Positions 27,568 to 56,481 of a stretch of 64,000 bases of DNA are shown here, in pieces (positions within the stretch are counted from its first letter, which is position 1; the number at the start of each line of letters is the position of its first letter). The DNA is from Octopus vulgaris (Eukaryota), in contig OX597818.1 of NCBI GenBank assembly GCA_951406725.2, forward strand, positions 118,978,001 to 119,042,000, in the 5' to 3' direction. The notes beneath the pieces are model-generated. The model did no database searches. It had not been told where the DNA came from and was given only the letters and a program-made list of their open reading frames with translations. The position numbers and the translations under genes are program-made.

Positions 27568-29098
27568 TGTATGTATATTGAATGTGGTAACGTCACGCAA
27601 ACGATGTTTATCACGAATATATCGCACGCCCAACGCCACCGCACAGTAGCTGAGACACAGGCAGACAGACAGGTGACAGGCAGGCAGACTGGCAGACAAT
27701 TAGGCAGACCCATTGAAATAGGCGCTTATGCGTAACAAATGACTATATAGAATATCGGTAAACGAATAAGTCCAAAGTTAAGCTTTGACAACGGTATTAT
27801 CGAGTGTGAATTAGAATATTTTTGTACTCGGTAGAGCCACGTACAGTTTAAAAAGTCCACAAAATAAATAATTATATTTCAAAACACTTCAAACGATATT
27901 TCTGTATTTATTAATCCTTATTAATCATTTATTAATTATTAATACATATGAATTCTAATATCAACCACATGTTCAGAAGACATATTTAAATACAATTTAT
28001 AAAATCTGATACCCACCTGAATCTTAGATGAACAAAGAAAAATTGGGGAGGAAAGATAAAGTAGAGAAAAGAACAAAATACCAGAATTAAAAAAAAAAAA
28101 TCTGAGATAATTGAAAATATGTAACACTATCGCCGAAAATATGTAACATAATATTCGTTTTGAGACTGTGAAGGCGAGGTAGTATGAGCATGAAGATAAA
28201 AGGGAGAGTTTTGGGAAACAGATTTTACTCCCGAATGACCTATTTGTCGCCAACCTCCATATTTTCCAGGTTAGATCATTAATCTCCCAGTGTAATGAAC
28301 TTGATATTATTACATGTAGAACTGAAAATAAATGATGGGGGAATGAATGGCGTTTTTTGCTCTAAAAGATCGAGTGGTAGTTCAAAGCATGGGGACAAAC
28401 TCGGTGATGCTATCGCGGTGAACTCAGAAATAGTTGTTTACAACCTGGGAACAAAAAAAAGAATACAATTATAGGCAAATACGAAAACACTGCACCAAAC
28501 ATAACCATGCACTCCGCCAATATATCGGCTTACCAATAAGATTTTTCATTTTAGTTTCTGTCTACTTGTCAAGGAAATACAGAATACTCAAGTGCGAGTG
28601 ACAAAAAATACACGTGATGTTGAAATGAATATCTTAAGTACGCAGTCCAGTATACATATACATATACACATACACACACACACACGTTCAGATTTTTGTA
28701 GTGTGTATGCCTATTGAGACTTGGCTGTAGGCTATGTAGCTATATATCTAAGAATTATATAGTTATATCGTCTAGGACCAATAATTATTTTATACAATAA
28801 AATAAATCGCTCGGAAATATTTGGTATATAAAATTTAATTGAAATATTTATATGAACGATCATTATATTAGACATATAAAGCATCGAATCCATATTCTAC
28901 TTTAGCTACATATTAGAGACTTCAATTTGTAAATTTCTTGAATTATGTAGTTTTCGATGCAATTTCTTTCGGCAAAACAAAAGATGAACTGGCCACGTCG
29001 GGAGACAACTGTGTACATAATTTTGCTATTTTATAGATAACTACTAAGTAAGTATGTAAGTAATAATAATAATGATAATAATAATAATAATAATAATG

Positions 29099-29135
<37 letters not shown>

Positions 29136-29152
29136 AAATAATAATAATAATA

Positions 29153-29596
29153 GATGCCCTGATGCAGTACTAGGCAGTGGCTCTCATGGCTTCTCATCTT
29201 AACTGATTGAAAGTGTTATCATGGACATTGTTTTGTATTGGTATAAACGATAGACTACAGCAAATATTCTGCTCAATACCACAGATTTGCTTGTCAGTTG
29301 TTTGACCGTAACCAGTTGAGCATGTCCCTTAGTGGTTGACGATATGTACATCTCTGGCCACAAGCAGAAGTAGTGGGGGAGCATCATAGCCATGTATTGA
29401 GAGGGATGGGTTATTCGACCAGAAGAAAATTCTAACTGGGCCACACCTGCAAGGTCATGCGCTGTTTATCTTGATATGAGATCACCATGTCGCGCACATA
29501 TGGTTGTGAGACATGTGCCTAGTGCCATGATGGGTATACTGGGCTTCGATTATTTAACCCAGTGTCACTTTGATGGCATGCTCTGCTCTCTCGCTC
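29153..29596 (+). mobile_element. Non-coding interspersed element inserted in (TAA)n, copy 1
   Basis: Homologous to 39674..40188; (TAA)n directly on both sides. Confidence 0.8.
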
Positions 29597-35881: not shown

Positions 35882-36043
35882 TTTCTCTTACTCTTTCGTT
35901 TCAACTCTGCCATATCCCACAGAGGTAAACATGCACCCTTTCTCTTTCTCTCTTCCTCAACTTCTTCCACCAGCTAACTATATAACTACATAATATAATA
36001 GCAATCGCTTCCGCTAAATCTCGCCACTTGCAATCTCACCCTC

Positions 36044-36069
36044 AATAATAATAATAATAATAATAATAT

Positions 36070-36121
<52 letters not shown>

Positions 36122-36152
36122 GATAATAATAATAATGATAAGGATAATAATA

Positions 36153-36251
<99 letters not shown>
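36044..36251. repeat. (TAA)n microsatellite
   Basis: Directly visible. Confidence 0.97.
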
Positions 36252-36252
36252 G

Positions 36253-39200
36253 TAAACACCGGGGACGTTTAAGATGTGAGAACGATAAAACAGTGCTCCG
36301 AAATCTATCCACAAACATCGAAAACAAAGACATCGTATGGAGCCAAAAATTTATTAACAAAGGATTGGACTATATCCGAGTAAATAATACTCATTGAAAT
36401 TTATTACTATTTACGAAACGAAATGATGTATTTTAACTCGATATCATCTCCACCTCTAACACGACACATGTAAAAAGTAAAATAATCAAAGAACTGAAAA
36501 CCACAGAGCTCAAAATGGACCACCGACCATACCTCCCAAAAATCAAAATAGACGAAACAACAACACCAATTATAAACAGCATAAACCTAGCCGTCACGGA
36601 ACTAATAGCCACTGAAACAAAAAGCGATATCACTGAGCTACATGACTTAGTATACGCAGCAGCCACTGCAGCCACAAAAGAAGCTGGATACACACTCAAA
36701 CCCATCCAAATAGGAGTACCACCACCCAAACAAACCCTGTGGATAAATAACATCCAAAACAAAATACAAAAAATGAGAAAAGATCAGTCGATTCTTAATG
36801 AAATCAGTAGACAATCAACGCTACTGAGCAACAAAAACAAAAAAAAAATACTCCGCAAATACATCACAGAAAAAGCTTTACCTGAGATAAAAGAAAAGCT
36901 AAAGCAAGATATCCTTGCCAAAGCACAAAGGATCCGCCGGTACGAGAAACGCCAGCACTTCTTTGAACAAAACAAAAAGTTCAACTCCAACCCCAAAAAG
37001 TTCTATCAAGAACTTGGCAAAAATAAAATAGAAATCACTGCAGCACCAACGGCAGAAGAAGTGGAAGAATTCTGGAGAGAAATATGGTCGGCGAACGAAT
37101 AACCAAAAAAAGGAGTATTAAAACAACAAACTCATCATCTGAGAAATTTGGACCACCATAACAACTGAAGAGGTCACCCAGGCACTGCAAAGACTAAGCA
37201 ACTGGAAGGCACCTGGGCATGACAAGATCCCCAACTTCTGGTTGAAATATCTAACAGGAATGCACAAAAAGCTGGCTGAAAACTTTAACAACATACTAGC
37301 AGAGCCAGAGACAATGCCTGCATGGCTCACGAAAGGGGAAAACCCTCTTAATTCCCAAATCAAATGAGACAGCAAAACCAGAAAACTACAGACCAATAAC
37401 CTGTCTCCCTCCAATGTACAAGGCATTTACTGCAGTGATATCGCAAAGGTTGAACAAGCACCTAGACGAAAACAACCTGTTGCTAGAAGAGCAGAAAGGA
37501 TGCCGCAAAGGCTCATATGGCTGTAAAGATCAACTAATGATTAATAAAGCCATAACTGAAGACAGCCACAGAAAGAAGAAGGGCCTCAGTATGGCCTGGA
37601 TCGACTACAAAAAGGCGTTTGATAGTATCCCCCACACATGGATCCTCGAAACACTAGCCATTAACAAAGTAGCACCAACGATTATAAAATTCATAGGACA
37701 CTCTATGAATAAATGGCAAACAGTCCTACACCTCCAAACAAAAGAGGGACTCATGAAAACCAAAGACATGCCCATTAGAAGAGGAATATTCCAGGGAGAC
37801 ACGCTCTCTCCACTCCTTTTCTGCTTGGCACTGTCAACTCTATCTGATATGCTAAATAGAACTGGATGCGGATATAAATGTTACGGCAAAACGATCAGTC
37901 ACCTTTTATATATGGATGACCTAAAACTATACGCTACAAATGACAAACAGCTGGAAACACTATTAAAGACAGTTCATGGATTTACCAAAGAAATAGATAT
38001 GAAATTTGGATTAGAAAAATGCGCCAAAGTAACCATGAAAAGTGGAAAGCTAGTTAAGAGTAGCAACATCACACTAGATAAAACCAATGAAATAAAAGAA
38101 TTAGACCAAAGCCAAACTTACAAATACTTAGGAATCCATGAACTAGATAAGACACAACACACACAAATGAAAGAGAAAATAAAAAAAGAATATTATAGAC
38201 GAGTTAGATCAATACTAAAAACAGAGCTCAATGCTAAAAACAAGATAATAGGTATTAACACTTTAGCTGTCCCAGTTATAAGTTACAGCTACAGTATCCT
38301 TAACTGGACACTAAATGAACTGACCAAGATAGATAGGAAAACAAGAAAAATAATGACAGGATCTAGGATGCATCACCCAAAATCTGACATAGAAAGACTA
38401 TATATAAAACGTATAGAAGGTGGTAGAGGCCTTATACAGCTGGAAAACCACTATAAAATAACCACCATAGGACTGCAAAAATATCTACTTCAGAAGGAAG
38501 GAAAACTGATACAAATAGCGGCAAAACACGAGCAAAACAAAAAACTGGTCTCAGTATTTAAGGAAGCTGACAAATACAAACAAGAAAACATACCACCTAA
38601 TAAATATGAAGAAGAAGAAGAAGAAGAAGAAGAAGAAGAAGAAGAAGAAGAAGAAGAAGAAGAAGAAGAAGAAGAAGATGAAGAAACAACAAAACCTATA
38701 AAAGAAATGAAATCCAAACTAAAAATAGAACAGCAACGAACCATGATAAAACGATGGCAAGAAAAGCCCCTTCATGGTAACTACTGAACTAAACTAAACT
38801 CAAAAGAAATAGACAAAGAAAAATCCCAGCAATGGTTGAGAAGCTCAGGACTCAAAGCAGAGACAGAGGGATTTTTTATTGCTGCACAAGGCCAAAGCCT
38901 CTCCACCAGAAATTATCAAAAACATGTAATGAAAAGAAATATAACAAGTAACTGCAGAATATGTGGAGATGGACAAGAAACAATAAATCATATTATCTCT
39001 AGCTTCCCAGTCCTAGCTAAGAAGGAATATATTCACAGGCATGACAGAGTTGGAACCTACATACACTAGAAGCTATGCCAACATGGAATAACAACAGAAA
39101 AAAGATGGTATAGGCACACACCAGAAAAGGTCACAGAAAACGAGAAAGCAACCATACTCTGGGATATGCCGATACTCACAGATAGAGAAATTAAGGCCAA

Positions 39201-40227: not shown

Positions 40228-40490
40228 GGTTATACTCGTGATGATGTACCTCTGATAATTGGTGCTTTGGGAACAGTAAACCAAAATATAGACATATGGC
40301 TGAAGATTGAAATAGTATATACGGAAGAGCCCCTATAGAATGTTTGCCTCTTAGGGGCAGCAATAATTATCAGGAGGATTCTAAGCACTTGAAGGTCTAG
40401 CGAAAACGTGTGGATACGTCAGGTTAGTGGTAATAACCAGCAACCCTATCAATCGTACCAGGACTATGACCAAACCTGAGCTTTGTTTCT
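40228..40490 (+). mobile_element. 5'-truncated 3' end of a second R4/Dong-like family
   Basis: VPLIIGALGTV...*NVCLLGAAIIIRRILST* parallels IPIIVGALGMI...QKIALLGTAHILRRTLS of the upstream element; (TAA)n on both sides. Confidence 0.7.
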
Positions 40491-40658
40491 ATAATAATAA
40501 TAATAATGATGATAATAATGATGATGATAATAATAATGATGATGATGATGATAATAATAATGATAATAATAATAATAATGATGATAATAATAATAATGAT
40601 GATAATAATAATAATGATGATAATAATAATGATGATTATAATAATAATGATGATGATA

Positions 40659-40690
<32 letters not shown>

Positions 40691-40708
40691 GATAATGACG
40701 ATGATGAC

Positions 40709-49835: not shown

Positions 49836-50675
49836 CTAGCATTACAGACCCGTCGTTGCCGGGTCATAGTGCTAGTGCATGTATATATGTGTATATATAT
49901 GTGTACATATTACATGTACATCTATATATATACATCTACTCATAAAATACAAAATACAAAGTTATATCTTGATATCGCTAGTGATAACAATACTCGAAAT
50001 ATATAACAGACTGGAATTGTTAGCCCATCTCTTGTACTTTCGATCAATTGTATCTTGCCCTCCCTCTTGTATAGAAGTGTGGCTACAATCCGACGGTTGC
50101 AGCGAAATTCATTTTTGGACTTTCTTCTATCGAGGAGATTTTAACAAAAATACTTCCGTGTAAACGGTGAAAATATTGTCAATTTCCCCAAACAGGGACA
50201 CAATTCAATTTTTAAACAATAATCAAAGCTCCTTCTCCCAAAGAGGGAGGGTTACGGTTTACAATTATTTAACAAATGCAACACAACAACGCTTCCCTTA
50301 CGAGGAACCAACAAACATGATAACAATAGTTAAACAGAAATAATAATAACAACAAACCTTACGGTAAACCAAAAAGCCGTACTCTGTTGAAGCTATAGGC
50401 CTTTATGGATCAGAAATAAACTAACAGCGGTACTCAGTAGATATTTCTTTATTACGATTATAAAAATCGGTACACAGAATTACAAATACAGGACATACAT
50501 ACAAAAACATTTAAGAGAATCGTTTAAAAATTGTTTAAATTCGTTATAAAAATATTAACCTTTGCTTAACTAGTATAGCAAACAACAGTAGGTAACCTTG
50601 TCGTCTCACTGGCGTTTTTACACCCCGGCAATTTGTGAGGCCCTGCAGCTTCCACTTCCTCTCTCTCCTCCATGA

Positions 50676-53600
50676 TCAAGCTGGGTTTCTCACACCCACC
50701 TTTCTTTCTACTTCCTTCCATCTTTTCTCGTACACACCCCGCGGCAGGGTCCTCTTCTCCAGCCCCATTTTGCTCTTCAGATGATATCTGAAGTAAGTGA
50801 GCAAGCCGGGTCCGGAGATGAAGGACCCTATCGCGGCTCCTTCCATTCTCGTTCTCCACATGCATTCCTTTACCACTGCCACCGTGCAGTGGAAACATGC
50901 CTCACCTTCCTTCGAGAGTCCAGTTGGCGGTATCATCTTAATCATAGACTCAGCCGACAGCTGTACTCGTCCCAGATGGGACAACACGTGTTCTGCGTAA
51001 CTTATCAAGTCGGACAACTTCCGACAGTGAACAAAGGCGTGCTGGACGGTTTCATCGTCCAACCCGCACCTTGGACACGTCGGTGGCACTTGAACTCCGT
51101 GCCGCGATAACTTCTCGCGAACAGGTAAAGCATTCCTGTAGCACTGCCAGGCCAGGGATCTTTGGAAATTATCCAAATACCCCGACCTGAAAGTTTTTTT
51201 AAACAGGTTGGCGAGCTGGTCTTCATCAAACCCCAGAGCCCCTCCTAGGACGTCGTCATTTTTTACCTCCACCAGCCCTCTATAAAATACCGAGGTGGTA
51301 TTTCCGCAGCCGGCCTTACCCGTCTTGTGGATCAGCGTGAGTGCCTGTCGGCACTCTTTTTGCCATGGAGTCAGTTTCCATCTTTTGATGTAACCGGGTT
51401 TAAAATTAACTAAGGAGGCCGGTCTCGGGAAAAATCCCTCTGCCAGCGGACTCCACACCTTATCACCCTCCAGGTGGTGCCAGAGGTGCCTTAGCCTCAA
51501 CGCATGTCTGCGCATCATCAACCAAGGCATCCCTAACCCGCCCTTTAACGGTTCTTGGCAGCAAACGGATCGTCTCACAAGTGGCTTTCCTCCTTTCCAC
51601 AAAAAGCGGAAAAGGATTCGTTCCAACTTGTTAAGCCATGAATCGGGGCAAGGGACAACGGTCAGGCGGTAGGTGATTACAGATGCAATAAACATCTGCA
51701 CCACCTCCGCCCTTCCTTTCAGGGACAGAGACCTTCCGGACCAGGTCCGTACTATGGCCTCCACCCTGCTCGTCACCTCGCTCCAGTTCTTCTCCGTTTG
51801 GGAGTCTGGTCCAAACCAAACTCCCAGCAACTTAACAGGGCCATCCGTCCAGTGTCCCACGACACTGGACGATATCGGCTTGCTCCTCCAGGTGCCGAGG
51901 CGCAAGCCAACCGATTTGTCCTTGTTAACCTTTGCTCCTGCCACCGCCTCGTATCCTCTGATAACCTCCTCCACACAAGGTAGTTGGGCCTCTTTGGACA
52001 CGATGAGGGTGACGTCATCCGCGTAAGCAGTCACCGTCCTCCCACCTCCGATTTCATCCGAGTTACTCCCCAGCCTCTCCAACTTTCGCAGCAGTGGCTC
52101 AAGAGCCAATACGTACAAAAGTGGTGACAAGGGGCACCCCTGACGCACTGAACACTTGATCGAAAACGGTTCCGTTAGGTAACCGTTTATCTGGACGGTG
52201 GACTTGATGCCGCTATACATAGCGGAGATCCACCCGCGAAATTCAGGGCCCAGCCCAGTCGCTTCGAGGACCGTCGCCAGGTACCCATGGTCTACCCTAT
52301 CGAAGGCTTTACTTTGGTCTAAATGGACCATTACCCCACCTTTGCCGGCTAATTTACCCACCCTATCTAAGGTGTAGCGTATAAGGTGAAGATTGTCCTG
52401 GATCGACCTGCCTGGAATTGCACATGTCTGTGCTCTCCCTACAAGTTTCTCCACGACAACCGTCAACCTTTTTGCTAACACCTTGGCCAGAATCTTTAAC
52501 TCTACATTAAGTAGAGTTATGGGCCTGTAGTTACTAATATTATCCCCCTTGCTCGGGTCTTTCTGGATTAGCGTCACCACTCCCCGGCTTACAGAACTGG
52601 GGATTCTCCCATTCTGCTGCCAGTTCGTGTAGACGCCTGCCAGTATTCCCCCGAACAAGTCTGGCATACTTTGGTAAAACTCATAGGGCAGACCATCCAA
52701 CCCCGGCGACTTCTCCCCGGCGCATCCGGCCAGTATCTCCTTTATCTCCGCGGGAGTGATCGCTCCCTCACAGCACTCCACTTCACGCCCCGCGAGCCGC
52801 GGTCCGCCGGCCAGGAAGTCCTTTAAGGCCCTCCCCCGATCCAGCGAACCACCACCCCCGAACACGCGAGCGAAATGCTGGTGAAGAAACTTTTGCATCT
52901 CCTCCTGTCCATAGATCTTTTGTCCCTGTTCGTCAGTCAAAGATTTAATTGAGGCTCTATTGCCTCTCTTACTCTCCACACGACGGGCCCATACGGCCAC
53001 GTTAATACCTTCTCGTTTCCCAGCACGCAGCTTAGCTCTGACTCTGCAACCTTCGTACTTGGAGTTAAGGTGACGGTACAATACCGTCCTTGCCGCCAAC
53101 ACTCCGGATGCAGAGCCAGCTTCCATTGCCTCGTCTAGATTCTTGACTAAATCGCCCTCTAGACTAGCCCTATCTATCCTTAGCTGATTGCTAAATCTGA
53201 CGGACTCTAAACGAATGGCTCTTTTGAGGGCGTGCCACCATCTATTGTTAATGATGGTGCCACACAATGCCCTCTGAACTAACACCTTAATCCGGGTACG
53301 GAAGTCTTCACAATTCAAAATAGCCTTGTTCAGCTTCCAGTACCCGGGTCCCTGTCTATGACACTTGTCTAATTGCACCTCACACGTCACAAATTTGTGA
53401 TCCGAGTAAGGTACAATATGAAATTGTGGACAACTAAACGTATCCTTATCTCTTTTCTTAATAAATATCCTATCTAGATACGATCTGTGTGAGCCGTCGT
53501 TGTTACTCCACGTCCACTGTGGAACGCTCGGCTCATCCAGTCGGTAACGGTCCACTAGATCAAAGCTCTCTAGTAGACCCTTGAGGCTAGGGTTCCCCTT

Positions 53601-54065
53601 CCTATTGGTTGAGCCAACACTGTCGATGTGCGCTTCAAGGACAGTGTTAAAGTCCCCTACTAGGATTACTGTTTTCGACGTCGCTAAAAAGGGCTCCAGG
53701 TTCCGGAAAAAACCCGTCTGTCTACCCTCGTTCGGGGCGTAGACAGCTACCAACCTGAAGGACTGTTTACTTACGTGAGTCACATCCAGGACAACCAGCC
53801 TGCCTTCTGGGTCCAGAAAGACAGTACTTACCTGCAAGTCCAAGCTCTTCCTGATGAAGACTGCCACGCCTCTGCCTCTTCCTCGGCTAGGAGAAATAAA
53901 TTTCTCGAAACCATTTAGAAGAGGCGAGAACGCTTGGGTCTCGCTCATCTTGGACTCGGTTGCAATAGCAATATCTACACTGTGTGTCGTGAGGTCGTTC
54001 AGGAAACAAATTTGTTTCCGTTTCGACCCCATTCCACGTACATTTATACAGCCCAGCTTAGCCAT
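50676..54065 (-). CDS. ORF2p: APE endonuclease, reverse transcriptase and C-terminal zinc finger (1129 aa), Tx1/L1 clade
   Basis: CINVRG, VYAPN, ILVGDFN, SYLDRIF, YSDH, GPGYWKLN, KSPGLDGLP, NYRPITLLN, LDQSKAFDRVDH, VRQGCPLSPLLY, YADD, GGLG, CPRC..ETVQHAFVHC. Uninterrupted. Confidence 0.95.
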   Translation of the reverse strand: MAKLGCINVRGMGSKRKQICFLNDLTTHSVDIAIATESKMSETQAFSPLLNGFEKFISPSRGRGRGVAVFIRKSLDLQVSTVFLDPEGRLVVLDVTHVSKQSFRLVAVYAPNEGRQTGFFRNLEPFLATSKTVILVGDFNTVLEAHIDSVGSTNRKGNPSLKGLLESFDLVDRYRLDEPSVPQWTWSNNDGSHRSYLDRIFIKKRDKDTFSCPQFHIVPYSDHKFVTCEVQLDKCHRQGPGYWKLNKAILNCEDFRTRIKVLVQRALCGTIINNRWWHALKRAIRLESVRFSNQLRIDRASLEGDLVKNLDEAMEAGSASGVLAARTVLYRHLNSKYEGCRVRAKLRAGKREGINVAVWARRVESKRGNRASIKSLTDEQGQKIYGQEEMQKFLHQHFARVFGGGGSLDRGRALKDFLAGGPRLAGREVECCEGAITPAEIKEILAGCAGEKSPGLDGLPYEFYQSMPDLFGGILAGVYTNWQQNGRIPSSVSRGVVTLIQKDPSKGDNISNYRPITLLNVELKILAKVLAKRLTVVVEKLVGRAQTCAIPGRSIQDNLHLIRYTLDRVGKLAGKGGVMVHLDQSKAFDRVDHGYLATVLEATGLGPEFRGWISAMYSGIKSTVQINGYLTEPFSIKCSVRQGCPLSPLLYVLALEPLLRKLERLGSNSDEIGGGRTVTAYADDVTLIVSKEAQLPCVEEVIRGYEAVAGAKVNKDKSVGLRLGTWRSKPISSSVVGHWTDGPVKLLGVWFGPDSQTEKNWSEVTSRVEAIVRTWSGRSLSLKGRAEVVQMFIASVITYRLTVVPCPDSWLNKLERILFRFLWKGGKPLVRRSVCCQEPLKGGLGMPWLMMRRHALRLRHLWHHLEGDKVWSPLAEGFFPRPASLVNFKPGYIKRWKLTPWQKECRQALTLIHKTGKAGCGNTTSVFYRGLVEVKNDDVLGGALGFDEDQLANLFKKTFRSGYLDNFQRSLAWQCYRNALPVREKLSRHGVQVPPTCPRCGLDDETVQHAFVHCRKLSDLISYAEHVLSHLGRVQLSAESMIKMIPPTGLSKEGEACFHCTVAVVKECMWRTRMEGAAIGSFISGPGLLTYFRYHLKSKMGLEKRTLPRGVYEKRWKEVERKVGVRNPA

Positions 54066-54093
54066 TGTGGGTGAGAGAAGGAAATGTATATAC

Positions 54094-55517
54094 TCACGGT
54101 TGCGAGAGGGAGCATGACAGTTTCAATCTGCCTGCTTCCCTTTCTTCCGTTGCTGCAGGGTTCTTGACCGGCGTTGCCACTGGGCTCTGGGTGGGTGTGG
54201 TTGCCGGGGTTATTGCCAGTTTACCCTCCATTACCTCCTTGGTTACATCTCTAATAAGACGGTTCCTCAGGTGTTCCTGAAGAACCTCCTCCTTCCACTC
54301 GTTCTCCCCTACCTTCGCGAAACGAGCGGTCGCCTTCCCATCTGAGGTTCTACTATACAGTGGAAATCTCGCGAGTTTGCAGCATTTGTAAACTTTTTCA
54401 TTTTTTTCATCAAAGGCTATAATTCTTTCGTTTTTCGATATGCACTTTTTGATGTCTTGTTTTATGGGGAGGGGTTTGGCAAACTGTTTTCCAATGAAAA
54501 CAGTGCCATGGGGGTAGGGTTGGGGGATTTGTTTAATGTGTGTGTCTGCTGTGTTTGTTGTTTTTTTCCTTGTTTGGGGAGGGGAGTCCTGGGTGTTCTC
54601 TTTTTTTTTTTGTGTGTGACTTGTGTGTAGTCCATTGGTTCTTTTGAATCCGTTTTCGTTTCCGTACTTGTCTTCTTCATTTGGTTGTTCTTGCTTGTTT
54701 CCTCCCCTTCAGTGACAGGTACACTTTGAGGAGGCGTTTCTTCTGTTCTTTTTTTCTTAATGCAGTTGGACCGGACGTGACCCTTCTCTCCACACTTGAA
54801 GCATCTGGGTCTACGTCCCTCCACCGACACTCTCATGGACGTGCCGTCCTCATTAAAAATTCTGTCAGGCAGGCTCTCCAAGATCTTGTTCTCTGCCTGT
54901 ACGAGGAGTTCCAAGGTCTGACCCTTCCAGCGTACCACTTCCTTCCTTCTCATTTGCAGAATTGAAATTTCCCGCTCCATGTTGTGTAGTACCGCCGCTG
55001 CCACCCACATGATGTCGTACCCTCTGGGTATGTCATCTACCACTAACTTTGCAGTTCGTTTCCCCATATACGAGGGTAACAACATGATGTCGTCGCTTTT
55101 TAAGGTTAACGACGACACCTCCTTCGCCACTTCTGCCGTGTCGAAGTGCACCTCTACCGTAGCACTACGTGCGCCTCTCGCGATGTGACGAATTCTGTCC
55201 CACACCGGGGACAGGCACTTCTCAACAATTTCGTTTTTCGCGTCCATAATCTTTTTTTCCTTAAAGCTATACACTTTATAAGTTACAATCCTTTCCTTGA
55301 TTTCTTGCACTTTCGCTTGCGGCGGTACCAGCCTTATCTCTCCTCCTTCCACCTTTACAAGATTCCTGTATTCATACAGCTGTTCGATCTTGAATTCGAC
55401 CTCTATCATAGCGCCGCCCACCGCGGCCGAGAATGACTGTTTGGTTACTGGGTTTTCCATGGTTTCACCTTTTCCCATCACGGGAAAATCGTCCTTCGAC
55501 GTTAAGTCGAACTCCAT
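54094..55517 (-). CDS. ORF1p (gag-like, CCHC zinc knuckle) with a -1 frameshift, most simply at the A11 run (54601-54611)
   Basis: ATG at 55517 (MEFDLT), SFSAAV, CFKCGEKGHVRSNC. Zero frame stops at 54462; the -1 frame stays open from the A run (ENTQDSPPQTRKK...LSCSLSQP*) to TGA at 54094-54096, 28 nt before the ORF2 ATG. Confidence 0.8.
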
Positions 55518-56481
55518 CACCTCAAAGGTAGCAAATTTCAAATAATACAAAATTTTCTGCCCCGTAGGGCGAAAATCACCGTTTCACAACGGGCACTGTT
55601 CAAAGCAGTTGGTACAAACAATAAATTCACAACTTCGACTCTCTTAAATGGGAGCAGCAATTTTCTCACAACGCAAACAGAAAAATAACGCAATTAACAG
55701 AAGCGGTACTCAGTAGAATCCTTAATGCTAGCTAATTAGCAAATAATCTAATGTAAAAGCCGTGCACACCTCCATCTGGACTATTCCATTTTTGCACTTA
55801 AATTTTATTTTTTTATTTATTCCCATTCATGTGAAACCACTGATTCAAGTTCAAGTCATTGATGCAATTTTATACCAATTGCTATATTTTTACTTCTGTT
55901 ATGTTACGATAATATTATACTTTAGTTTGATTTTAATTATTACTTACTACATATAATTCAATTGTTATTATTTTTGCTGTTAAAGTGAAAATATCTGACA
56001 TAAAATAGGGAAATATTTTTGTTTCACTTTTAACACGTAATACTGAAATAGTGGAGAAGATATGATATTGCTATGGGCTCGCTCTAGGCAAGAAGTTGAA
56101 CATTTGTTTTTTTCCCATGAAACTACATGGACCCTAAGTAAGGCAATGTGTAAAATTTGAATGAAATTGGTTGTGTAGTTCTCGAGTTTTAGGGAAACAC
56201 ACAGACAGACAGACAAACACACACACATTTTCAGTTTTATATATATAAAGATATAACGATGTGTGTGCGTGTGTGTGCATGTGCGTGCTTGTGCATCCTT
56301 GTGCAGATCTTCCCACCACCGCTTACCAAACGGTGTTGGTTGGTTTATGGCGACTCAAATAGTGGTGCGGCAAAAGTGTTCCATACAATAAGCACCAAGA
56401 TTTACAAATAAGTATTGGAATCGATTTGATCGATTGATGTCTTTCAAGGCGCCCCACCACCACCACCACACACACACAAAA

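Follow-up and report, generated by a model that had tools for sequence, protein, structure and literature searches.

The question raised by the stretch of Octopus vulgaris DNA analyzed in this work (the window, i.e., 64,000 nucleotides of contig OX597818.1 of assembly GCA_951406725.2, positions 118,978,001 to 119,042,000 of the forward strand, numbered here from its first letter) is how a non-LTR (long terminal repeat) retrotransposon of the L1/Tx1 group came to lie inside a Helitron, and whether this position was chosen by the retrotransposon or inherited from its host. The comparative analysis of the genomic copies revealed that the octopus Helitron site is a real, base-exact and recurrent landing site of this long interspersed element (LINE), whose coordinates are corrected below. 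As for the way in which the site is chosen, we suggest a two-tier model that we regard as somewhat probable, in which separate target-primed insertions occurred at 12 Helitrons, and a preference for transcription start sites is combined with a return to the same site through copies of it borne by the element RNA.

A recurrent landing site in a non-autonomous Helitron

The LINE spans positions 50442..55701 on the minus strand (5260 bp) and, as a first-pass annotation had already stated, has no poly(A) tail. It is bounded by a perfect 16-bp target-site duplication, whose downstream (3') copy lies at 50426..50441 and whose upstream (5') copy lies at 55702..55717, both on the minus strand. A genome search with positions 50126-50700 returned 11 full-query matches and 29 matches ending at 50441; 19 loci of the latter kind were retrieved, 18 of which resume within about 50 bases at window positions 55692-55718, the remaining one being broken by another insert. 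Empty Helitrons join 50441 to 55702/55718, and the empty joint (50425 to 55702, with the 16 letters shared) is present in contigs of two public runs.

The host is a 1.14-kb element on the minus strand. Its 3' part (49836..50441), which includes the downstream copy of the duplication, is continuous with empty copies at 88-96% and terminates (49836..49865) with a hairpin at 49847-49865 (stem of 6 bp, loop of 7 bases, 11 bases from the end) and with CTAG at 49836-49839, followed by T; its 5' part (55702..56251) contains a short ACAG/CTGT run at 56201-56212 and begins with TC after A (56251-56250). Helitrons are recognized by a 5' TC, a 3' CTRR, a hairpin just inside the 3' end and insertion at A/T without duplication, and all of these features are found here. 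Among the 79 Helitron loci scanned, many of which fall short of both ends, the 3' hairpin-plus-end motif was found in 63 and that of the 5' end in 48; in the listed copies whose end is intact, CTAG is followed by T. The recurrence of the A/TC junction, the hairpin and the CTAG/T junction in other copies therefore identifies the surrounding repeat as a non-autonomous Helitron, so that the nesting proposed by the first-pass annotation is correct, whereas the junctions it gave are not. Indeed, the ends of the Helitron lie about 600 and 550 bp from the true LINE junctions rather than 290 and 470 bp, and the imperfect 16/17-bp direct repeats assigned to the junctions (50107..50122 on the left and 55783..55799 on the right) are internal Helitron sequence, the left one being no target-site duplication; 18 of the 33 scored empty copies contain both, separated by 399-465 bp, the other 15 having failed the 3-substitution match. 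The empty junction that had been predicted has no match in the whole genome at three or fewer mismatches, and the proposed target sequence was rejected along with it.

Two further observations concern the Helitrons themselves. Longer subfamilies carry, at window position 50090, about 400 extra bases with a 33-34% match to ORF1 (open reading frame 1) of the LINE; judged from this match, they are a remnant of a related retroelement. In several old unfilled copies (among L161-L174), the strand opposite to that of the LINE reads TATAAG some 28 bases ahead of a TCAGT.

A census of the family, carried out with a degenerate 3'-end pattern (45 matches) and DNA searches, gave 28 places including the window; two pattern matches (L128 and L129) were removed, having no match or only a 67-78% relative. 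Among the resulting 26 loci, 12 share one identical Helitron base and 14 lie elsewhere, mostly behind TATA-like boxes; the idea of Helitron targeting, and of flanks common to the genomic copies, was thus borne out for the former and not for the latter. The share of the Helitron in the flanks (46%) exceeds the 20% for one repeat that has been used to define target-specific Tx1 families (PMC4494074). Since Helitron sites of this kind number 596 among about 66 million TCT(A/T) sites, the finding of 12 out of 26 loci at this base is beyond chance. The 12 loci comprise 23 units, six of the loci being head-to-tail arrays (of 2, 2, 2, 2, 3 and 6 units) in which a single copy of the duplication links neighboring units. 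The LINE position is base-exact in 23/23 units, and the 5' end is full in all 23, versus 9/14 of the other loci. The exact junction pattern occurs genome-wide at 24 junctions, 23 belonging to this LINE family and one to another element.

Occupancy differs among the Helitrons, amounting to 10/46 in a short subfamily, 2/32 in a subfamily with 48 extra bases and 0/~518 in the others, counts that are approximate because the search patterns were of unequal stringency. The target is a Helitron, as the first-pass annotation had it, but a small subfamily is favored and the high-copy bulk is unfilled. A G-versus-A variant located 13 bases from the nick was considered as a possible determinant, G being present in 10/12 filled hosts versus 6 of the first 100 listed sites; within the short subfamily, G is found in 9/10 filled hosts and in 29/38 exact empty sites, so that the variant tracks the subfamily and was rejected. 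The short-type loci are multimeric in 5/10 cases, above the Poisson expectation (p 0.003), and unequal crossing-over after the first dimer could have added to the multimers. Assembly artefact as the source of the arrays was rejected: neighboring units are of different haplotypes, and a head-to-tail junction is crossed by one contig in each of two runs of one study, a weak indication in that fewer than 31 bases of the upstream unit lie beyond the duplication.

Passive spread of a single old insertion in a composite Helitron by rolling-circle transposition, as had been envisaged for this locus, is at odds with the divergence of hosts and LINEs. The mean divergence is 3.8% among the 12 filled hosts and 4.9% among 41 empty ones, and the closest pair of filled hosts is 2.6% apart, whereas the LINE divergence over 11 Helitron loci is 0.95% overall and 0.07% in the endonuclease and linker region; two of the 12 filled hosts belong to the subfamily with 48 extra bases, and a tree constraining the filled hosts to one clade was rejected by the approximately unbiased test (p-AU 0.004 for the 12 hosts and 0.025 for the 10 short-type hosts). 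A host divergence so far above that of the LINE (about 50 times that of its endonuclease-linker region), together with the rejection of one clade, indicates separate insertions and no rolling-circle hitchhiking at the 12 loci. Hence, even though the window Helitron has both ends intact, passive spread is contradicted for these loci, where filled hosts are interspersed with empty ones, and we consider it hardly credible. Recombinational homing, by which filled copies would convert empty ones through homology-directed repair or recombination of complementary DNA with no target-primed insertion, would agree with the mosaic structure of the LINE units and with the lower divergence beside the junctions in filled than in empty hosts (0.014 vs. 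0.036 and 0.027 vs. 0.063), a comparison in which the empty set mixes subfamilies. However, the sequence close to the junctions (within a few bases) holds private variants and a deletion of 25 bases in several filled hosts; this speaks against conversion tracts of any length and makes homing very unlikely.

Dispersed sites and the ends of the element RNA

The duplications at the dispersed loci usually start with TCT and are mostly 15-20 bases long (15-20 bp at ten sites and 78 bp at one, compared with 16 bp in the window), two of the 14 loci having none. A TATA-like box (TATAWAWR with at most one mismatch, on the element strand) is located between -34 and -26 at 9 of the 12 dispersed sites with a duplication and at 0-1 of 12 in eight other intervals, the background in two sets of control sites being 9.4% (n = 1206) and 4.3% (n = 233); with one shared site counted once, the figure is 8/11 (p 8e-7). 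This spacing makes the first base of the duplication a predicted start site. The same box is found at 6/18 distinct sites of a separate ORF1-only family (30 loci examined; p 0.005; 0-2/18 in other intervals), or at 6/13 without the five sites that are array junctions. The first-ATG frames behind the dispersed TATA sites are short, and these sites are candidate promoters. An Rfam scan of six target loci gave no family at the gathering level and microsatellite-driven matches only, so that no RNA polymerase III gene (tRNA, 5S or other) was detected at that level in these six, and a captured small-RNA gene at the site was rejected on the basis of the same six loci.

Several loci outside the main site deserve a description. 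One ORF1-only element (L181, G000:C6:63001551-63003241; 1.66 kb) occupies the Helitron base used by the LINE, with an identical duplication and the same AATAAAGAAATA end; its ORF1 shares 31-50% amino-acid identity with that of the window element, and the family to which it belongs yielded at least 40 matches, of which several form arrays with their own duplications. An older LINE subfamily (L110, L127, L130, L179; C9:77.64M, C25:8.96M, C2:59.40M) lies in tandem repeats of about 610 bp behind a TATA-like box; the repeats, which number at least 10.8 units at C9, have no Rfam match, and an identical site is common to two of the loci, through either duplication or separate insertion. At L099 (C2:182.80M) a 282-aa ORF1-like frame of another family starts 251 bases downstream, which makes this site the likely front end of another element. 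An array at a non-Helitron duplication (C9:59.204-59.253M, L111-L116) comprises nine full units and a tenth interrupted by an assembly gap, one unit being of another haplotype, about 3.3% from its neighbors. At C27:22.946-22.955M (L124, L177) a 5'-truncated unit lies upstream of a diverged (76-89%) full-length relative, one duplication joining the two. Two short fragments complete the picture, namely a 77-base 3' fragment with the 78-base duplication (L095, C1:114.657M) and a 200-base copy in which a piece of the reverse transcriptase (RT) region is fused to the 3' end (L117, C9:89.338M).

The copies of the site at the element ends are informative in another way. At 3/12 Helitron loci, a variant is seen in the outermost 3' copy and is missing from the outermost 5' copy; one array junction holds the site twice; and three dispersed copies exhibit, at the 5' end, extra blocks of 15-16 bases resembling older duplications. 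Such discordant, doubled and extra 5' copies are as expected from a transcript starting at the 5' duplication, and on these grounds the copy at 55702..55717 was probably carried at the 5' end of the element RNA. At the opposite end, a putative AATAAA signal (50448..50453, minus strand) lies 6 nt short of the element 3' end; as cleavage usually occurs 10-30 bases after the poly(A) signal, it would be predicted to fall within the downstream duplication.

The sites also seem to follow the lineages. The start of the site of dispersed copies resembles that of their nearest relative more often than under permuted labels, both for the six young loci (p 0.003, with the old subfamily excluded, the reciprocal pair counted once and the first base omitted) and for all 11 (p 6e-5). 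Two units whose endonuclease is identical to that of the Helitron copies, with 0-1 changes in the remaining ORF2, are located at a different site start, which they share, and arrays were found at three unrelated duplications.

According to the two-tier model, the family would aim at predicted starts of transcription that lie some 30 bases past a TATA-like box. Transcription of the element would begin where the 5' duplication begins, and the AATAAA located 6 nt from the end would let the RNA extend into the 3' duplication; the RNA of each copy would thus carry the 15-20-base landing site at its ends, favoring a return to the same sequence, and these ends might anneal to the nicked target during the priming of the first and of the second strand. 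After a single entry into the Helitron site, a lineage may then have recolonized sister Helitrons and formed stacks at the 5' duplication of its own copies.

Endonuclease, start site and RNA ends as possible determinants

Other explanations give the choice of the site to a single determinant. Endonuclease specificity of the kind known for Tx1L supposes that one allele of the apurinic/apyrimidinic endonuclease (APE) reads the short-subfamily Helitron sequence flanking the nick on either side, insertions elsewhere being due to other alleles or off-target. The allele S29, V30, V106, S149 is indeed present in 18/18 Helitron-site units keeping the domain and in 3/15 other full-domain units, a distribution that also weighs against the two-tier model; mosaics retain it while ORF1 and the 3' half are swapped, the occupancy reported above tracks the bases upstream of the cut, and the Tx1L endonuclease nicks its own site almost exclusively (PMC1950540). 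The allele is confounded with the 5' end of its lineage, and the same endonuclease stands at unrelated sites in three units, a second allele being found at several different sites and in the 10-unit array; the region aligned to the hairpin loop of L1 (192-202) differs in only 1/34 units holding it. Moreover, the endonuclease leaves the TATA spacing and the discordant 5' copies unexplained, and we consider it rather doubtful that it decides alone. If, instead, any start site sufficed, the Helitron base would be a strong one, lacking a TATA box in the short subfamily, and the carriage of the duplication on the RNA would be a by-product of transcription starting there. The TATA link at the dispersed sites and in the ORF1-only family, and the presence of an unrelated ORF1-only element at the same Helitron base, would fit this idea, as would the TATA-like box in 2/3 insertions in non-short hosts versus 3/21 empty ones, small as these numbers are. 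Nevertheless, the short subfamily, to which the window's own Helitron belongs, has no TATA-like box, so that start-site targeting is insufficient by itself; the site starts follow the lineage; and 12/26 loci in one promoter type would be a remarkably narrow distribution were any start site sufficient. Start-site targeting without further determinants is therefore improbable.

The two-tier model has its own difficulties. A TATA-like box (with at most one mismatch) is found in only 1/12 filled Helitron hosts, the six-unit locus, where a private change creates TATATAA, and the short subfamily that provides 10 of the 12 has none. The test for these boxes was set after the flanks had been inspected, boxes having been noticed at three old copies, and some of the one-mismatch matches lie within TA-rich DNA. 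All three loci with discordant copies are arrays, and the extra 5' blocks could be locally templated. About 518 older Helitrons are unfilled, the 14 of them that were retrieved sharing 12 primer-end bases, and two young hosts with the same variant are filled; pairing of 16 bases alone cannot explain this choice, and something upstream of the cut or in the chromatin also matters. Nor is site memory required, since the ORF1-only element L181 reached this Helitron base although its 5' end looks like another site. Lastly, start sites and RNA ends are both predictions from sequence. With these points in mind, we advance only tentatively the broader reading of the two-tier model, according to which the family would be a core-promoter-reading animal LINE, transcribed from host start sites, that inherits its target via both RNA ends and may switch it without any change in the endonuclease.

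The element and other target-specific retrotransposons

The coding capacity of the window element is partly preserved. ORF2 (50676..54065, minus strand) is an open frame of 1129 aa with profile matches to an APE endonuclease (PF03372), an RT (PF00078) and zf-RVT (PF13966), whereas ORF1 (54094..55517, minus strand), which has a CCHC knuckle (PF00098, score just over the cut-off), ends as assembled at 351 aa through a frameshift in the run 54601-54611; the element is thus intact, as the first-pass annotation called it, in ORF2 only. The frameshift corresponds to one base missing in an A-rich run, and the extra base is present in contigs of two runs; it may represent an assembly error or a shared variant. 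A full-length ORF1 (472-478 aa) is found in 11 of the 35 aligned units and both ORFs are full-length in only two; many breaks are one-base indels, to which assembly error may contribute. Among solved structures, human L1 ORF2p is the nearest to ORF2 (E 2e-67; R2, E 2e-25). The combination of APE, RT and a C-terminal zinc motif in ORF2, an RT nearest to that of L1 and a duplication of the type left by staggered nicks assigns the element to the L1/Tx1 group, and a CCHC-bearing ORF1, typical of the Tx1 clade, is present as well. The closest named RT relative of ORF2 is from Argonauta; the closest named relatives among the homologue matches listed are unannotated cephalopod, turtle and fish proteins, with no named Tx1 protein among them. 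Membership in the Tx1 clade is likely.

The 35 aligned units, which include 19/23 Helitron-site units and 5/10 units of the C9:59.2M array but neither the short fragments L095 and L117 nor the second, diverged unit of C27:22.9M, are mosaics. Their endonuclease region (element positions 1750-2500) is near-invariant, most units showing 0-4 changes per 250 bases, in subfamilies that diverge by 7-18% in ORF1; mosaic units with a near-invariant endonuclease region suggest frequent template switching. Elsewhere the window contains long arrays of 3-base period with 9-base steps (35955-36361, 40398-40700 and 29010-29191) and numerous TA/TG microsatellites.

The comparison with known systems is based on the available passages of the papers cited. 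Insertion of Tx1 families into Mariner, Harbinger and LTR elements, and also into piggyBac, has been described, and the Tx1-type elements Tx1-Mar, Tx1-9_AMi and SINEU-3 of crocodilians have targets of the first three kinds (PMC4494074). The octopus element shares with them a preference for fixed positions in a non-autonomous DNA transposon, a duplication of 16 bases, tandem copies with one duplication between them, flank-derived 5' extensions and a hitchhiking hypothesis tested and rejected (PMC4494074), and differs in its Helitron host, its base-exact 23/23 units, its lack of poly(A) and the TATA spacing away from the Helitron. Tx1L of Xenopus laevis, found in Tx1D, is likewise an APE-RT element at one DNA-transposon site, with a specificity shown to reside in the endonuclease (PMC1950540, PMC6719617, PMC4494074); unlike it, the octopus element has identical endonucleases at unrelated sites, and 14/26 of its loci lie outside the transposon. 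Drosophila R1 also forms arrays via insertion into the 5' duplication, obtains precise junctions from the 5' flank in its RNA and has off-target sites sharing 4-9 bases with the main site, to which those of the octopus element may be likened, but it belongs to the R1 clade, targets 28S rDNA and has no promoter link (PMC2718515). A position set relative to the transcription start is shared with Dictyostelium TRE5-A, whose ORF1p binds TBP, Brf1 and Bdp1, and with yeast Ty3; these target RNA polymerase III genes, TRE5-A 44-54 bp upstream and in the opposite orientation (PMC5911963), whereas the octopus element, known from sequence alone, would use TATA-type starts in the same orientation, its duplication beginning at the predicted start. 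For SART1Bm and R1Bm, a short target-like RNA has been proposed to anneal to the nicked strand, their target being fixed (telomeric or rDNA) with no lineage-by-lineage change of site (PMC7265360). Recently active L1-Tx1 and Helitron families have been described in octopus, with no target analysis in the passages available (PMC13282606). Transposon-targeting and stacking Tx1 elements are therefore already published; in the literature searched, whose coverage is partial, no Helitron-targeting Tx1 and no TATA-linked LINE site were found, although the target figure or supplements of PMC4494074 may name a Helitron.

Tx1 families target many unrelated repeats, and a changed endonuclease is the usual explanation. 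This young family represents a natural experiment in this respect, in that the same ORF2 protein occurs at different sites, the sites follow the lineage and the distance from a TATA-like box is fixed. If the endonuclease alone decides, the octopus family would be one more transposon-targeting Tx1 with a new class of host. If, on the other hand, the RNA ends help to choose the site, target switching would need no change in the protein, and an RNA-steered, promoter-anchored system, if true, would offer a route for the frequent target changes of Tx1 elements; in addition, insertion at start sites would rewire the transcription of the surrounding DNA.

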